A DNA stretch of 64,000 bases from an uncultured virus (IMG/VR IMGVR_UViG_3300042366_001473) (taxonomy: Duplodnaviria; Heunggongvirae; Uroviricota; Caudoviricetes): the IMG/VR virus record IMGVR_UViG_3300042366_001473; one strand, written 5' to 3'. Shown here one piece after another: positions 3,103-63,719 of this stretch. The position numbers and the translations under genes are program-made. Within the stretch, counting starts at the first letter, position 1. Each line of letters opens with the position of its first letter. A model generated the notes under the pieces. That model worked only from the letters and a program-made list of their open reading frames with translations, made no database searches and had not been told where the DNA came from.

Positions 3103-3269
3103 TACTTGTTGCTTTCAGGCGGAATAGCGATCACTGGCTGAAACAAACGACGTGTTTGATCCAGTACACCAGGAATATCCACAGGCTGTTGTTTGTAGCC
3201 ATTGCTGGCAGGACTGTGTGGATTCATCACCGGTGGGTTTGTTAAATTTTCGTTGATTGGTTTGTACAT
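3102..3269 (-). CDS. 55-aa hypothetical protein (below ORF-track cutoff)
   Basis: ATG at 3269, MYKPINENLTNPPVMNPHSPASNGYKQQPVDIPGVLDQTRRLFQPVIAIPPESNK*, TAATG overlap at 3102; fills the operon gap. Confidence 0.65.
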   Translation of the reverse strand: MYKPINENLTNPPVMNPHSPASNGYKQQPVDIPGVLDQTRRLFQPVIAIPPESNK

Positions 3270-3273
3270 GATA

Positions 3274-18292: not shown

Positions 18293-18320
18293 AACATACT
18301 CCTAGAGTGGTTAAGCATGT

Positions 18321-18349
18321 ATTATAGCAAAGATTGATTTTGATGTCAA
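18321..18349 (-). promoter_or_regulatory. Consensus sigma70 promoter overlapped by a 12-bp inverted repeat
   Basis: TTGACA-17nt-TATAAT with extended TG. Confidence 0.88.
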
Positions 18350-18367
18350 TCTTTGCTGGTGTTGTTT

Positions 18368-18613
18368 TTAGAACACAGTACCGCGAAACTGCTCGTAATC
18401 GTAGAATGCTACTAAAGTACTATCTCGGAAGTAAACTGTGATACCGCCCAGATCCTCGCGAGCGTCCCACTTTGTCTGCTCCAAAATAACATTGGTTGCA
18501 CGTACCTCTAGCTCGTCTGTTAAGTCCTCGCAACTTTGAAGAGCTTCTGCCTCATAATCTAAAGTGTATACTTCAGTACTATTAATTTGTGCGCTTTGTA
18601 CATCTGTTAGCAT
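18368..18613 (-). CDS. Small acidic hypothetical early protein
   Basis: AAGGAG RBS; own sigma70 promoter. Confidence 0.7.
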   Translation of the reverse strand: MLTDVQSAQINSTEVYTLDYEAEALQSCEDLTDELEVRATNVILEQTKWDAREDLGGITVYFRDSTLVAFYDYEQFRGTVF

Positions 18614-18640
18614 TGTGGCTCCTTGTGTAGTTAAGTGCTA

Positions 18641-47210: not shown

Positions 47211-47915
47211 TTACGAAGTAAAGTTCTCTACAATTGCCAAACTCACGCGGTTTTGTTGTCCACTTACGTTGGCAGCACCTGTAGTACCTGACTTGACTTC
47301 ATAGCCTTCGTCGCTGAAGAAGTTGGTCAAATAACGAACCGGGGGTGTGCTGTAGTCCAGAGCAAACTTGTTGGTCAGCTTGCTGATCAACTGTGCAGTA
47401 CTGTCGCCTGTGCTGAATGTGATGTTCATGTTGCCTACAGTGAGTGCTGTGTCAGCTTCGTTGGCCAACACACATGTACCTACGTTTTGCACAGTACCTG
47501 TGCCTGCACCCGCTGCAGTTGCAGTGAATACATCACCAACTGCTGCATTTGAATCGCTGGCTCCGCATGCTGCCCAGTCAGTGGTACCCACACTCAAAAT
47601 ACGATATGCTTGACCTACAACCATGTCTTCGTCGTTGACCGCTGTGACAGTGGCCACTTGATACTTGGTAGTGCCTTTTTGTGTGATGATGTATGCATCA
47701 GCTTCAGATGCTGTGCCTACAATAAATGCACGGCATTTGACCACAGGAAACGCAGCAGTAGCTACGCTAGCATTGGCACCACCCACAACACCCAGATACT
47801 CTGTACCATCAAATGTGGTAGGATCGCTGGGATAAATTGGATTGGTCAGTGCGCTAAACGGATTGAAACCGATGTCACTGGTAGTAGATTTTTTAATTTT
47901 TAGAGGACGACCCAT
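47211..47915 (-). CDS. Probable virion structural protein (possibly capsid decoration)
   Basis: Strong AAGGAG RBS, own late promoter CATAAATA (48008-48015), Ala/Thr/Gly rich. Confidence 0.55.
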   Translation of the reverse strand: MGRPLKIKKSTTSDIGFNPFSALTNPIYPSDPTTFDGTEYLGVVGGANASVATAAFPVVKCRAFIVGTASEADAYIITQKGTTKYQVATVTAVNDEDMVVGQAYRILSVGTTDWAACGASDSNAAVGDVFTATAAGAGTGTVQNVGTCVLANEADTALTVGNMNITFSTGDSTAQLISKLTNKFALDYSTPPVRYLTNFFSDEGYEVKSGTTGAANVSGQQNRVSLAIVENFTS

Positions 47916-48056
47916 TTGTTTTCTCCTTAAAGAAGTCCGATGCGGGTTCTAGCCGCTACGCTGAGGGTGTTAACAACAGCATAAAACGCACGATTGCGTT
48001 GCAGATATATTTATGGAAAATGTCAAAAGCTCAGGCAGCACGCATTAAATATCAGT

Positions 48057-49205
48057 ATGGAAACAGAATTTTTAATTGAACAAGGCAATCAACATCGCAC
48101 CGATCGCCAATATCACGAAGCACTCAAATGCTATGCATTGGCGTTTGTGCAAGATCCAGAATCGGCAGCGGCCTGGAACAACTACGGCAATGTAACCAGA
48201 GAAATGGGTTATCCTGCTAGATCTGTACCGTTTTTGCAACATGCATTGGTGTTGGAACCCAACAATGTCACTGCACAATTCAATTTGGCAGTGGCCTATC
48301 TGCTGCAAGGCGACTACAGTCGCGGTTGGCCAGCATACGAAGCTAGATGGAACTACGAGCATCTTGCTGGCACAGAACCCAAGTATCAGCAGCCACGTTG
48401 GCGCGGTCAAGATCTACGAGACAAAACCATTCTTGTGGTAGGCGAACAAGGACACGGGGACAACATTCAGTTTGTGAGATTTTTGTGGAACTTGCATCAA
48501 ATGGGTGCAAAAGTCAAACTACAAGTCACTGACGGTTTGATTCCGCTGCTGAGTCGCAGCAATATCATACACCAAGTAGGTAGATATACCGACGACATGG
48601 GCGAGTTTGATTATTGGGTTCCTATCATGAGCATACCCGGTGTGTTGGGCATCACACTAGATATACTGGCAAAACCTGTGAGTTATCTCAATGCTGATCC
48701 TGCACTGGTTCAACAGTGGCAAGAACGTCTGGGTCCAAAAACACGCATGAGAGTAGGTCTGTGCTGGAGCGGACGTCGAGACTCATGGCTCAATCAACAC
48801 AAAGCCATGCAGTTTGATGATGTTGTTCGCATGTTGAAAGACAACCCGCAATACGAATGGATCAATCTACAGTGTGATGCCACTGAAGAAGAAACTGCTG
48901 AACTTCAACAGTTGGGTGTCAAAATGTTTCCTGGTTGTGTGTCAAGCTTTGCAGAAACTGCTGCACTGATCATGCACATGGACGTTGTGGTCAGTGTGGA
49001 CACTGCTGTGGCTCACTTGTCTGGTGCACTGGGCAGGCCGCTGTGGTTGATGATCCAACGCTACAGTACTGATTGGCGATGGTTGTTGGATCGCGACAGT
49101 TCCCCTTGGTACTCCACAGCACGACTGTTTAGACAATCTGATTACGGAGATTGGACCAGCGTTGTTAAAAAAGTTAGCCAATATCTATCGTGGTTCAAGG
49201 TGTAA
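48057..49205 (+). CDS. TPR-repeat glycosyltransferase (GT-B, GT9-like C-terminus)
   Basis: TPR helices (AWNNYGN, AQFNLA), EQGHGDNIQFVRF, VGLCWSG, DVVVSVDTAVAHLSGALGRP, DWRW, SPWY; ATTAAATA 5 nt before ATG 48057. Confidence 0.88.
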   Translation: METEFLIEQGNQHRTDRQYHEALKCYALAFVQDPESAAAWNNYGNVTREMGYPARSVPFLQHALVLEPNNVTAQFNLAVAYLLQGDYSRGWPAYEARWNYEHLAGTEPKYQQPRWRGQDLRDKTILVVGEQGHGDNIQFVRFLWNLHQMGAKVKLQVTDGLIPLLSRSNIIHQVGRYTDDMGEFDYWVPIMSIPGVLGITLDILAKPVSYLNADPALVQQWQERLGPKTRMRVGLCWSGRRDSWLNQHKAMQFDDVVRMLKDNPQYEWINLQCDATEEETAELQQLGVKMFPGCVSSFAETAALIMHMDVVVSVDTAVAHLSGALGRPLWLMIQRYSTDWRWLLDRDSSPWYSTARLFRQSDYGDWTSVVKKVSQYLSWFKV

Positions 49206-49273
49206 TATAGTACAATACACCTGTATCCAATACAAGATACTATAAAAAGCAAAGTCGTTAAACTATATTACTT

Positions 49274-49320
49274 AATCCGCGCCACTCCTGAATTGACTTG
49301 TCAGAATGTGCGGATTTTTT
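49274..49320 (+). terminator. Hairpin plus T-run after TPR-GT gene
   Basis: AATCCGC...GCGGATT followed by TTTT. Confidence 0.55.
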
Positions 49321-49328
49321 ACGGCCAA

Positions 49329-49356
49329 CAAAAAAGCACCCGAAAGTGCTTTTTTG
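49329..49356. terminator. Bidirectional terminator after gp23
   Basis: CAAAAAAGCAC-CCGAAA-GTGCTTTTTTG. Confidence 0.85.
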
Positions 49357-49382
49357 GTTGCTTGTGAAAAGCCTTGCAGTGA

Positions 49383-53209: not shown

Positions 53210-53313
53210 AGAGAAAACTCCTGTAAGTAAAGTGTATTGTTATTTACAATGCGAGAGAAAAATACGCGGTTTAATCGGCTAAAAAGGCCATAAATTGCCA
53301 ATTATGATCAAAA

Positions 53314-53532
53314 TTACGCAATAGGTTGTGGTGGTGGTGCGTACTGTTGACGAATTTTCTTGAGCTTCTCTTTGTATTCAAAAGATCGCACATCATTCAT
53401 CTTTCGTAGCTTGTTGAGCTGTCGCAAAGTCAAGCGAGTTTTGCGCAAGTCGTTTTTGGTAACTTGTGCATTGTCTTGACTTACGTCTTGATAAGCTTCG
53501 GGTGCTTTTTTCCAGAATTCTTGTAGCAGCAT
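53314..53532 (-). CDS. Small basic head-module protein
   Basis: 72 aa, RKTRLTLRQLNKLRKM; CATAAATA 5 nt before ATG. Confidence 0.7.
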   Translation of the reverse strand: MLLQEFWKKAPEAYQDVSQDNAQVTKNDLRKTRLTLRQLNKLRKMNDVRSFEYKEKLKKIRQQYAPPPQPIA

Positions 53533-53540
53533 GACGTTAT

Positions 53541-61138: not shown

Positions 61139-62169
61139 GTGTGTATTGCATTACTAGTGCATACCCAGTAGGGTGCACTTTTTTTGATTGGTCTATTCAT
61201 TTCTTGTCCGGGCAGACACATCACTACAATATACATCAACAACAGTGGTTGGAATTGCCCAATGATCCTGTGCAAGAACTCAATGCCCATGGGTATAAAA
61301 AAAATCATCCCATGGGCTTTGTTAACACACAAAAATTTATAGAGTCCTTGTTGTCCATGCCGCAACACCAACTGTATTCCGCATACCCATACCCATTGAA
61401 ACTTGTTGTTGCAGTAGATGAAAAAAATATACCAATATCTGATATTGGTATACCTTCTGTTAGATCACAAATTTTTCAATACATAAGTCAAGACTTTGAT
61501 CAAGTGTTTGAATTTTGCAATCTTCGCAATGCAAAGTTAATATACATTGGAAATCATCCAAATATTCAACTGTACCATTTAGAACCGCGAGCATTAGAAG
61601 GAGAAACAATTGATCATCAACCATACAACAGTGTCAGAGAATTAAAACAGCACCGTCAAGAATTATTTTTTAAAGACAGCATCGACTCGTGGACAGACTT
61701 AGGACTAACAGATATATGGGACCAACGAGAACAACAGGCACTAGATTCAAGACCTTTTTACTATCAAGAGTTATATTTAAAAAATATGACATATCCTCAC
61801 TTGTGGATCAACTGCCAGGAGTTGTGGTACCGCGGCGAGCAAGCGGTTCAAAAGATGTTGAACTATTTGAGTTTAGAGATGGTATCAGAAAGATTAGCAG
61901 CATGGAGACCCATATACGCAAAGTGGCAAACCAAACAATTGAATTTGCTGAGTTTCTGTTACAATTATCAGCACATAGTTGACAGCATTGTCAACAACTG
62001 GTATTACGAGATTGATCTAACATTTGATCAAGAAGTAGTGATACAGCACTGTTTGATATATCAACACAATCTAAATCTCAAAACTTGGAAATTGTCAAAG
62101 TTTCCAAACAACACACAAGACTTGCACAAATTGCTAGAACCCAACACACATCCAGTGGCCAACTATTGA
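61135..62169 (+). CDS. AT-rich hypothetical protein (possibly sulfotransferase/P-loop-like)
   Basis: 344 aa ORF, ATGA overlap; N-terminal ITS..PVGCTFFDWSIHFLSG. Confidence 0.55.
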   Translation: MSVYCITSAYPVGCTFFDWSIHFLSGQTHHYNIHQQQWLELPNDPVQELNAHGYKKNHPMGFVNTQKFIESLLSMPQHQLYSAYPYPLKLVVAVDEKNIPISDIGIPSVRSQIFQYISQDFDQVFEFCNLRNAKLIYIGNHPNIQLYHLEPRALEGETIDHQPYNSVRELKQHRQELFFKDSIDSWTDLGLTDIWDQREQQALDSRPFYYQELYLKNMTYPHLWINCQELWYRGEQAVQKMLNYLSLEMVSERLAAWRPIYAKWQTKQLNLLSFCYNYQHIVDSIVNNWYYEIDLTFDQEVVIQHCLIYQHNLNLKTWKLSKFPNNTQDLHKLLEPNTHPVANY

Positions 62170-62612
62170 GAACTGCTACGCAGTTCTTGGTGTATCGCTG
62201 TCGCTCACACCAGTTGTTGAATCAAAGAGCGAAGCGATTAAATGCTTCATCCAGATCTTATGGTCACACTTTGCCCGCACAGGGCAAAGAAACTTCATCC
62301 GAGTCGGGCAAGTCACTTAGCGTTACAGCATTGCAGAGGCGGTTGTCCGGTACCTCGAGCTGCGTCTTTATCACAACGGCGATTTGTATCACACACGCTA
62401 ACATGCATACAAACGTGTACTATCACTAGTACGTCTTTTTCCCTTTTAAAATTCTGTTCAAACAATCAAATCGCAGGTGTTGAGCGATCGTGGTCCTGTC
62501 AAGGATACTGATTGAGTGCTCGCGGCAGCGGCGAGGCTTCGGATCCCTGCGACACTGGGCCCAGGTTTCTACTGTTCGGCACACGAGGTTGACCTGTGCA
62601 AGTCTTGACTGC
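62169..62612 (-). ncRNA. Candidate large structured non-coding RNA (or replication origin) downstream of GIY-YIG gene
   Basis: ~440 nt without a credible ORF in a gene-dense genome; at least nine hairpins read by eye. Confidence 0.55.
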
Positions 62613-63047
62613 TTAACTGTGTAGTTTGTTGATTATGTGACTGCCGTGCACACGAACCTGAATGTGTCCGTTGTACCAGTCTTGGGATTCTAGCACTCGT
62701 CGTGAAAATTGTTCTCTTGCTTCGATATAGCTGCATTCTGATTTAGATTTACAGTAATAAAGTATTTCTCGTTTGAAGTTGTCTTTGCCTTGAGATTCAA
62801 CATCCCGGGAGAGCTCTGGGCTGCTACCGTAATAGTCCTGCCAGTCGCTGTCCACCTTGGTGCGAATCTTTTTTTTCTTCTTGGTGCCGTTTTTGAGTTT
62901 GACTGTTCGTTGAGTTGTTTTTGAGAACTTGGCTAGTTTTTTGCCTATGTATTTGCGATCGGTTCTGATGTTGGTGATTAGGTACACAAAGCCCACACAA
63001 TCTTCTGGGAGAGTTTCCACCGGTTGATTGTTGTATAGCCATGTCAT
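62613..63047 (-). CDS. GIY-YIG (Seg-like) endonuclease-domain protein
   Basis: GFVYLITN...RKYIGKK...WQDYYGSS...F.REIL...E...YNG.I. Confidence 0.88.
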   Translation of the reverse strand: MTWLYNNQPVETLPEDCVGFVYLITNIRTDRKYIGKKLAKFSKTTQRTVKLKNGTKKKKKIRTKVDSDWQDYYGSSPELSRDVESQGKDNFKREILYYCKSKSECSYIEAREQFSRRVLESQDWYNGHIQVRVHGSHIINKLHS

Positions 63048-63080
63048 TGCATATAATTTATGATTGCTGCCAGGTTGCTT

Positions 63081-63719
63081 TTAAATTTTGTCTGTTAATA
63101 TTTGTATAAATCTTTTGGGGTACGAAGTTCTGGTATGAAAATTGTCACTGGAGTGTAATACATTTCGTTGGAATGAAAACAAGTTACCAGGTTTCCAGGG
63201 ACGACTTACATATCGAAGACTCAAATACTCTCGGTCTTCATCCCAACAATGGCTTAGGTTGTTTTGCCAAAAGTTTTGATCCACTGGATTTGTTGTTTTT
63301 TTATTGGTCTGTTTGAACTTATAAAAATCGTTGTGTTCGGCAGTTTGATCAAACAGTATCGTACGACTGTCGCAATTGCTCAATGCAATAATGACCGAAT
63401 AATAAGGGCGCCCAACATTGCTGGATCTAACATAATCAGTGTGAACATCCCAGGGCAAAGATAATTCTTGAAGCACCAGTTCAGACACACGATATTCGCC
63501 GAGCAGATTGTCTAATTTTGGTTTTATGATGCTGACAGCTTGATCAGATTGATCCCATGGCTGTATGGCCTGATTGGCAATTAAACTACCTTTGGTAAAT
63601 CTTCCACCGTTGGAATAATAAGGAACCATTTGCCATTTTTCAACTGCTGCGTTTACTTGTTCAAGCTCAATAGCAGTTAAAAAATTTTCAATCTCAATTA
63701 TTTCTTTCAAGGTATTCAT
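63081..63719 (-). CDS. 2OG-Fe(II) oxygenase-like protein
   Basis: IENFL N-terminus, VHTD (HxD), distal LHSS, KRFIQ. Confidence 0.65.
   Translation of the reverse strand: MNTLKEIIEIENFLTAIELEQVNAAVEKWQMVPYYSNGGRFTKGSLIANQAIQPWDQSDQAVSIIKPKLDNLLGEYRVSELVLQELSLPWDVHTDYVRSSNVGRPYYSVIIALSNCDSRTILFDQTAEHNDFYKFKQTNKKTTNPVDQNFWQNNLSHCWDEDREYLSLRYVSRPWKPGNLFSFQRNVLHSSDNFHTRTSYPKRFIQILTDKI

Follow-up and report, generated by a model that had tools for sequence, protein, structure and literature searches.

In IscB/omegaRNA (HEARO) systems, found in a mobile genetic setting, a nuclease gene neighbors a large structured RNA that serves as a guide. Other large and ornate RNAs of phages and mobile elements, GOLLD and ROOL, are several hundred nucleotides (nt) long and contain many helices and pseudoknots. 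Here, we analyze a stretch of 64,000 nt of DNA (the window) from an uncultured virus of the Caudoviricetes (IMG/VR record IMGVR_UViG_3300042366_001473), in which the gene for a GIY-YIG nuclease of 144 amino acids (aa) is followed on the same strand by a structured RNA (62604–62169, minus strand) that starts 9 nt past the stop codon of the nuclease. T4 SegB is longer than this nuclease and has a DNA-binding part. Its gene lies in a tRNA gene cluster, and SegB is reported to recognize DNA of a conserved tRNA motif and to drive the inheritance of itself and the tRNA genes, segB being given as missing from related phages (PMC2330249). On the RNA side, the closest described element is the Polynucleobacter-1 motif, which has 141 positions and 16 representatives that come from Burkholderiales and from freshwater or estuarine samples (Weinberg et al., 2010; PMC2864571). 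The paper rates it as a probable RNA and a probable cis-regulator, and it is typed as “Gene; sRNA” both in Rfam and in the alignment file of the same paper. A full-text literature search for the name Polynucleobacter-1 returned only this describing paper.

The locus in the window resembles each of these systems in part. It shares with the segB locus a GIY-YIG gene of a T4-like phage directly beside stable-RNA genes and the inheritance of the locus as a block. However, the protein in the window is a bare catalytic domain and, among the matches listed, is present in every informative relative. As with IscB, a nuclease gene adjoins a large structured RNA in a mobile context, but here the nuclease and the RNA each occur alone as well, the nuclease family is different, and the RNA does not end in a variable guide segment: what varies is a pair of identical heptamers inside it, for which no target was found. 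Like GOLLD and ROOL, the RNA is a large, multi-helix, pseudoknotted RNA of phages and islands with unassigned function, but it has no Rfam match to those families; we know of no rule of two identical boxes, as described below, in GOLLD or ROOL. The Polynucleobacter-1 model is matched as a whole, its helices P1–P6 co-vary here too, and the habitat (fresh water, Burkholderiales) is shared, as is the lack of an assigned function. The differences are that the published motif makes up only the first third of the ~440-nt RNA found here, that no same-strand gene follows the RNA in the window, and that relatives of two other types (B and C) join the same 3′ domain to another 5′ domain. On balance, we favor the reading that the gap behind the nuclease gene encodes a structured RNA that is autonomous and ends the transcription unit of the nuclease, rather than a guide or cofactor made for the nuclease.

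The idea of an element outside the known RNA families fails because the 5′ 145 nt match RF01718, the Polynucleobacter-1 family; a match to a known family was among the grounds for refutation named beforehand in the original prediction. The cmscan match scores 79.1 bits (gathering score, 37; E-value, 4e-15) and covers model positions 1–141 of 141; it is specific to the minus strand and occurs as a single copy in the 349-kb genome. The 3′ ~290 nt of the RNA have no match in Rfam and are conserved as well as the 5′ part. Beyond RF01718, a search of 61900–63200 against Rfam at E ≤ 10 gave only two noise matches, to families of small nucleolar RNAs, and ARAGORN found no tRNA or tmRNA.

That the element is structured was read from covariation. 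In a first alignment of 28 distinct homologues, examined with RNAalifold, compensatory change runs along the entire gap, with 93 pairs predicted and 43 of them changed on both sides. A larger set of 106 distinct full-length RNAs was collected, for which the helices were defined on the window sequence and then scored: 66 of the 108 proposed pairs have changed on both sides, and slid controls pair far less. Covariation downstream of the nuclease homologues, which the original prediction had put forward as a check, is thus present, and all of the stems that it had listed proved to be real helices belonging to the set P1–P15 (Table 1). When the 3′ domain is counted over 35 sequences, including type B and one bacterial copy, 91% of the cells are paired as against 39–50% in slid controls, 26 of 38 pairs have changed on both sides, and none of 500 shuffles reaches the observed value. 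The helices of the RF01718 domain are also kept by compensatory change (both sides changed in 5/7 pairs of P2 and 4/6 of P4; for P1, P3 and P6 see Table 1). Counts of G-U to A-C cells are 168:2 in P6, 168:4 in P8b, 72:1 in P10 and 69:0 in P13, and overall about 766 to 210 with P11 left out. Since G-U is far above A-C, it is the minus strand that folds, and it folds as RNA.

Table 1. Coordinates of the RNA, its helices, pseudoknots (PK) and boxes, and the two adjoining genes in the window; fractions are base pairs with both sides changed.
Feature	Positions	Strand	Evidence or remark
Whole structured RNA, ~436 nt, helices P1–P15 and PK0, PK1, PK2	62169..62604	-	Covariation, conservation
5′ domain, Polynucleobacter-1 motif (RF01718), P1–P6 and PK0	62460..62604	-	cmscan
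P1	62579–62599	-	5/5
PK0 (5′ tail with P1 loop)	62602–62604 with 62591–62593	-	Pseudoknot of 5′ domain
P3	~62519–62535	-	3/5
P6	~62470–62488	-	3/6
P7, hairpin with GUGA-type tetraloop	62417..62432	-	5/6
P8, long hairpin	62382..62414	-	P8a 8/8, P8b 3/4
PK1	P8 loop 62396–62401 with 62317–62322	-	6/6
3′ domain core (P10, P11, PK2)	62325..62377	-	Covariation
P10	62359–62363 with 62325–62329	-	4/5
P11 (originally listed stem 62336–62356)	62353–62356 with 62336–62339	-	
PK2	62373–62377 with 62342–62346 in invariant loop GGUACCGGACAACCGCC	-	Changes between types
Box 1, GGAUGAA after CUC (module GUGAC-N6-8-CUC-box)	62294..62300	-	Identical to box 2
P12, hairpin between the two boxes	62269..62289	-	Nearly invariant in type A, 1/8
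Box 2, GGAUGAA after UCU (second module GUGAC-N6-7-AUCU-box)	62246..62252	-	Identical to box 1
P14, hairpin with internal loop and GNRA-type tetraloop	62188..62212	-	6/6 and 2/2
P15, terminal hairpin	62169..62187	-	7/8
SegE-type GIY-YIG nuclease gene, 144 aa, catalytic domain only	62613..63047	-	Pfam PF19835, phrog_447
Convergent accessory gene, 344 aa	61135..62169	+	Outside conserved unit

The long-range contacts are kept across types with exchanged letters. PK1 is paired in 95% of cells, as against 11–40% when its partner is slid, and persists in the bacterial copy as CCACUUA/UAAGUGG. PK2 is an invariant GUUGU/ACAAC in most type A RNAs, GUUGA/UCAAC in type B and in L070, GUCGU/ACGAC in L060 and GUUUC/GAAAC in bacterial copies. 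In place of P12, types B and C and the bacterial copies have a different, fully paired hairpin, and in A2 4/7 pairs of P12 have changed on both sides. P15, which overlaps the stop codon (62167–62169) of the convergent gene, is the last conserved element in all RNA types. A candidate long-range helix between the 5′ and 3′ domains (LR1, GAAGC/GCUUC) is paired in 77% of cells with little covariation. Helix P13 between the box regions was dropped, as it is invariant in types A and B and cannot form in type C or the bacterial copies.

How far does the conserved unit extend? In the best 80 loci of 590 relatives, DNA similarity of 70–88% typically runs from the start codon of the nuclease to ~62170 and ends on both sides. 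Because similarity spans the nuclease gene to P15, and because PK1 joins P8 to the 3′ domain, we regard this stretch as one unit. Its 5′ RNA domain varies more than its end. RF01718 is present in 50 of 79 nuclease-first records (36/40 and 14/39); 23 of the other 29 carry the 3′ domain downstream of the nuclease, four are contigs that end too early, and in the last two (L072 and L077) neither part of the RNA is seen in the available DNA. Type B RNAs have a different 5′ part of ~200 nt in place of the Polynucleobacter-1 domain and keep P8/PK1, P10, P11, PK2, both box-bearing modules, P12, P14 and P15 with many compensating changes. Type C loci match the model of the 3′ core weakly, at 19–30 bits. 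The 5′ part is swapped between types and the 3′ parts are kept; the constant part of the RNA is therefore the uncatalogued 3′ domain.

Searching viral contigs for a pattern taken from the 3′ domain yielded at least 120 stretches, and 119 of those listed hold the RNA. Among the matches listed, 72 RNA loci have at least 440 nt of upstream DNA, and the nuclease lies upstream on the same strand in all 72. The distance from nuclease to RNA is within 60 nt in 63 of them, 61–300 nt in two, and more than 300 nt, with an ORF (open reading frame) inserted, in seven; no Pfam family was found for the inserted ORFs. Whichever ORF comes last, the nuclease or an inserted one (L049, L048), the RNA starts right behind its stop codon, at most 9 nt away. 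In most relatives, this stop codon sits within a conserved GCAGUUAAG stretch, and a conserved GCAGU(U/C)AAG stretch marks the junction with the upstream ORF. In the window, the junction motif is duplicated at the nuclease stop (62605–62620, minus strand; AGTTAAG, then CAGTCAAG), so that the RNA starts 9 nt past the stop codon instead of 1–2 nt as in most relatives. The neighborhood of the RNA gains and loses accessory ORFs of 265–356 aa that have no Pfam family (between nuclease gene and RNA in L053/L054, L048, L049 and L062). What the linkage counts show is one stably kept gene order at a variable spot rather than many associations that arose independently.

Outside this set of phage contigs, each partner stands without the other, which is not what would be seen if nuclease and RNA always occurred together as in an RNA-guided system. 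A tblastn search found the small nuclease once each in 494 records of cultured phages, all at less than 60% identity; these are mostly cyanophages, together with Melnitz, ACP17, phiM12 and others. In three of them that were inspected, the nuclease is 140–146 aa long, the downstream gaps are 148, 0 and 87 nt, and the 3′-core model R1 finds no match. The RNA, in turn, occurs in bacteria: RF01718 is above the cut-off in 17 of 151 genomes (~2 Mb) of one genus, probably the one after which the motif is named, and in 1 of 151 genomes sampled across the family of that genus. Eight full-length bacterial copies were aligned and keep an architecture of ~460 nt; a ninth (L266) breaks off 181 nt past the 5′ domain. 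One copy, L259, is too diverged for model R1, which misses it; inspection by eye and the alignment gave its architecture. None of the nine bacterial island loci has a GIY-YIG gene. In eight of them (L259, L266–L269 and L272–L274 are those listed), a divergent ORF of ~145–160 aa lies ~190 nt upstream of the RNA, so the bacterial copies have room for a promoter of their own. The island around one copy contains two tyrosine-recombinase genes, a cytosine methylase gene and a DUF6641 gene, and a tRNA-Met gene is close by. L271, a tenth locus, is phage-like and carries the nuclease (56% identity).

In L264, the ORF upstream of the bacterial RNA encodes DUF6641 (PF20346), a possible partner protein; a search of the phage genome for DUF6641 gave no match and was uninformative, as its control search gave none either. 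In a collection of genomes, the phage form was found only in two metagenome-assembled bins, and 54 of 56 pattern matches were due to chance. Two contigs with the nuclease–RNA cassette (L250 and L205) are binned as Bifidobacterium and Flavobacteriales and are most likely mis-binned phage contigs.

The most peculiar property of the RNA concerns two modules of the 3′ domain that stand on either side of P12, each ending in a heptamer box. The direct repeat pointed out in the original prediction, GGATGAA(G), is real and corresponds to these boxes on the minus strand. Box 1 equals box 2 in 105 of the 106 RNAs, with eight variants of the heptamer among them, and there are at least 13 variants across all RNA types. 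The identity is kept in 9/9 type B rows, in type C (L069, ACAUGAA in both boxes) and in 9/9 rows of the alignment of the bacterial genus, the phage-like L271 included; the bacterial boxes are AGCGAAA, AUCAAAA, AGAGAAA or AACAAAA, each present twice, and those of L271 are both GCAUAAU. When the tree is built with the box columns left out, 31 label changes are counted for each box. Among phylogenetically independent pairs, box 2 goes along with box 1 in 10.8/11, 5/5 and 9/9 cases, and the opposite direction never occurs. Mutual information between the same positions of box 1 and box 2 amounts to 0.88 of 0.94, 0.56 of 0.56 and 1.37 of 1.37 bits, and that of the next best RNA column for box 1 is at most 0.36. 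As the boxes are ~50 nt apart, recombination can carry both together, but two changes are still required for each of the at least 13 variants. AGCGAAA, the most frequent box in bacteria, recurs as the 3′ side of P14 in the same RNAs (L267, L268, L270, L273 and L274).

What could read the boxes? They vary as a guide segment might, yet no target-like complement was found in cis or in the flanks, nor one enriched in the genome. The complement of the box is present inside the RNA or the nuclease mRNA in 0 of 106 cases, and neither a complement nor a third box copy stands at a fixed place in the flanks. The heptamer occurs 26 times on one strand of the genome, with 26.5 expected, and 12 times on the other, with 19 expected; complementarity to the box elsewhere in the genome is not above chance (best E-value, 1.9). 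Among 74 nuclease–RNA pairs, the alignment columns of the nuclease share at most 0.28 of 0.94, 0.17 of 0.49 and 0.48 of 1.43 bits with the box state. Two other ideas were rejected. In a rolling template or repeat ORF, a codon periodicity would be seen, but box distances of 47–61 nt leave modulo-3 remainders of 33, 39 and 34 with no such periodicity, and CsrA-like GGA sites do not fit many box variants that lack GGA. Two options remain, namely that one trans partner reads both boxes or that the boxes touch each other, like with like, in a parallel arrangement. It is conceivable, though we think it distinctly unlikely, that the boxes are twin specificity elements, whether the RNA holds two copies of one nucleic-acid sequence, as a re-programmable bridge or a decoy would, or the boxes pair in parallel with each other. 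We know of no conserved case of parallel base-for-like-base pairing in natural RNAs. If the bridging or decoy version were true, the effectors could be the neighboring DNA enzymes, the GIY-YIG nuclease in phages and the recombinases in islands.

The nuclease itself has 590 confirmed relatives in viral contigs. The protein matches PF19835 (SegE_GIY-YIG) at 116.8 bits (cut-off, 25; E-value, 9e-34) through residues 3–129; the profile is matched over positions 1–123 of 123, and the domain covers 127 of the 144 residues. A search for a second domain, such as a separate DNA-binding domain, or for another Pfam family found none. The original prediction described a minimal GIY-YIG protein with a basic insertion and no C-terminal extension; the gene is real and has no further domain, but the supposed insertion lies inside the PF19835 profile. 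The protein also matches phrog_447, which bears the odd label “NAD synthetase,” and weakly the homing-endonuclease families of PHROG. Y22, Y33, G35, R93, E109 and N126 are invariant in 18 nuclease sequences and may include the catalytic Tyr, Tyr, Arg, Glu and Asn of the GIY-YIG superfamily. In an AlphaFold2 model built from 18 relatives (predicted local distance difference test score, 72; C-terminus poorly predicted), the basic stretch forms a long β-hairpin. The structural matches of the model are weak but fit the expected fold: the best is the catalytic domain of I-TevI (1ln0_A; Z 5.3, root-mean-square deviation 3.1, 71 aligned residues), followed by the GIY-YIG enzyme PD-T4-3 (Z 5.1) and by T4 EndoII and UvrC (Z 3.0). 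Foldseek gave no match of the model at E ≤ 0.001, and a sequence search of the PDB gave none.

Is the RNA, then, a part of the nuclease machinery? The original prediction tied the structured RNA to the nuclease and proposed that it may form a particle with the nuclease or give it specificity. The former idea holds in so far as the RNA is structured, lies on the strand of the nuclease, abuts its stop codon and is linked to it in 72/72 of the loci listed, but a specific partnership is unsupported. In a nuclease–RNA particle, the bare GIY-YIG domain would bind the RNA, which would either supply specificity, for example through the boxes, or restrain the nuclease like an RNA antitoxin. It would suit two abutting genes on one strand, a nuclease upstream of every informative RNA-first locus listed and at least the 3′ domain in 73 of 79 nuclease-first records, a protein that has just the catalytic domain and bears a long basic β-hairpin, and boxes that are short, variable and single-stranded-looking. 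We nevertheless consider it unlikely, since the nuclease family lives without the RNA in the three inspected cultured phages (of 494 records) and the RNA without the nuclease in nine bacterial loci, ORFs stand between the two in seven of the 72 loci, no protein column predicts the box state, and the boxes have neither a complement in cis nor an enrichment of their heptamer in the genome. RNA guidance of the nuclease is unsupported for the same reasons. The nuclease could instead be a selfish Seg-like gene that cuts nuclease-less alleles in or near the RNA gene and sweeps through the lineage, dragging the RNA region along. T4 SegB, which is reported to drive the inheritance of itself and the surrounding tRNA genes (PMC2330249), offers a precedent; the locus is a hot spot, with a 214-aa gene unique to this genome and the 344-aa gene in a minority of relatives, RNAs of types A, B and C have exchanged their 5′ domains beside the nuclease gene, and the weak matches to homing endonucleases point the same way. 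Such hitch-hiking is also improbable in our estimate. The nuclease lacks a DNA-binding domain, the 72 informative phage loci listed include no nuclease-less RNA allele of the kind that the patchy presence of a Seg-type homing enzyme would produce, no broken copies were noticed, and the occurrence of the family as one copy in many T4-like phages is more in keeping with a resident gene.

Could the structure act on its own transcript or its own DNA? As a cis-acting 3′ untranslated region, it would only stabilize or regulate the nuclease mRNA, for instance by blocking 3′ exonucleases or by coupling to translation termination, and both the first helix 1–9 nt past the stop codon and the terminal hairpin at the 3′ end would fit. 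We regard this as highly unlikely, as 436 nt with three pseudoknots and invariant loops exceed the needs of a stabilizer, and the RNA is kept when another ORF precedes it and, in bacteria, without a preceding ORF. A ribozyme that processes itself out of the transcript or catalyzes another reaction is suggested by the size, the pseudoknots, the GNRA loops and the invariant unpaired stretches, which resemble those of catalytic RNAs, and by the conserved stretch at the junction with the upstream ORF; with no Rfam match to a ribozyme, an intron (Intron_gpI included) or RNase P at E up to 10 and no exon context on the minus strand, it seems very improbable. A group I intron with a homing ORF was rejected on the same search and because the upstream minus-strand ORF has its own stop codon and no minus-strand ORF follows. 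Finally, the hairpins and direct repeats might work at the level of DNA and serve as an origin or as a site of packaging or recombination. Protein-bound iterons typically are direct repeats whose changes go together, and a bacterial copy lies between tyrosine-recombinase genes, but the strong excess of G-U over A-C on one strand, the covariation of the loop-to-strand pseudoknots and the strand-specific match to an RNA covariance model make this hardly tenable.

We therefore return to the reading of an autonomous RNA. The RNA would form the 3′-terminal part of a transcription unit that starts with the GIY-YIG gene, and its terminal hairpin P15 might provide for co-transcription and 3′-end protection and also close the convergent gene. 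As a putatively autonomous module of mobile elements, it would owe its linkage to the nuclease to synteny conserved in one phage lineage, at a recombination hot spot, possibly reinforced by a Seg-like nuclease that favors the inheritance of its own neighborhood, as T4 SegB does for tRNA genes. It may act in trans by presenting two identical single-stranded heptamers to two copies of one partner.

Several observations weigh against this reading. No partner of the boxes was found. The perfect linkage in the phage set (72/72 of the loci listed) would also fit a functional pair; the convergent neighbor DUF6614 is 83–93% identical in most loci, which makes the phage contigs one lineage, and because these are close relatives, the linkage counts are not independent in either direction. 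The nuclease lacks both the DNA-binding domain and the scattered occurrence that a Seg-type homing enzyme would be expected to show. The fold of the single sequence is not unusually stable: its minimum free energy is −133.7 kcal/mol, as compared with −128.7 ± 5.7 for 100 shuffles (z −0.87), and 22 of the 100 fold as well as the native RNA, so the proof of structure is comparative, not thermodynamic. Some weak support for the reading comes from RNA libraries of lake and fresh water, in which near-identical and related contigs overlap parts of the RNA and of the nuclease gene, some of them differing at 1–3 positions (for example, 178 nt over 62449–62615 with three differences, and others over 62225–62374 with 1–3). 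These contigs are weak evidence, showing presence only, since they are assembled, may include DNA and carry no information on ends, strand or level. In a search of sequencing runs, only small shares matched, at most 0.13, and in the four runs with assembled contigs the missing cover to the left of 62202 and to the right of 63051 is uninformative. A promoter and terminator scan gave one site of each kind, with no excess over shuffles.

The window is the minus strand of positions 73034–137033 of a virus record of 349,369 bp, rated 97% complete. Among the genes of this record are one for a T4-type baseplate hub and some very long ORFs, the longest of 3,077 aa; a blastn search of the 2.6-kb region against cultured phages gave no match. 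The gap comprises 443 nt (62170–62612) without a convincing ORF. Because the two ORFs at its sides are convergent, it lies downstream of both genes; the original description of a gap directly after the GIY-YIG stop is right about where the RNA begins, but has to be extended by the convergent gene. Nor is it the only long intergenic gap, as had been stated: it is the longest ORF-free gap of the window by the ORF list, which contains several others (18293–18634, 53210–53540, 49206–49382 and 3103–3273). The convergent 344-aa protein has no Pfam or PHROG match. Of the 80 related loci, only a minority have a homologue of its gene (29–56% identity); a relative with 29% identity lies on the other strand between nuclease and RNA in L053 and L054. 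Two of the further gaps, 18293–18634 (342 nt) and 53210–53540 (331 nt), have no Rfam match at the gathering score. Elsewhere in the window, a full-length freshwater-2 RNA motif (RF02980) is found at 47913–48001 on the minus strand (70 bits; cut-off, 49.9), directly upstream of the minus-strand ORF 47211–47915 (234 aa, no Pfam family), and a TPR/glycosyltransferase-like gene (47994–49205) diverges from this pair.

Polynucleobacter-1, which has been on record as a motif of 141 positions since 2010, is thus the head of a ~440-nt RNA with multiple pseudoknots, and this enlargement alters what should be modeled, searched for and tested. The like-with-like rule of the boxes offers a sharp and cheap experimental handle. 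The locus is also a warning that a neighborhood of nuclease and structured RNA is not automatically an RNA-guided system. Abundant jumbo phages of fresh water often carry the RNA, and so do islands of one bacterial genus; the most constant part of the RNA is the uncatalogued 3′ domain.

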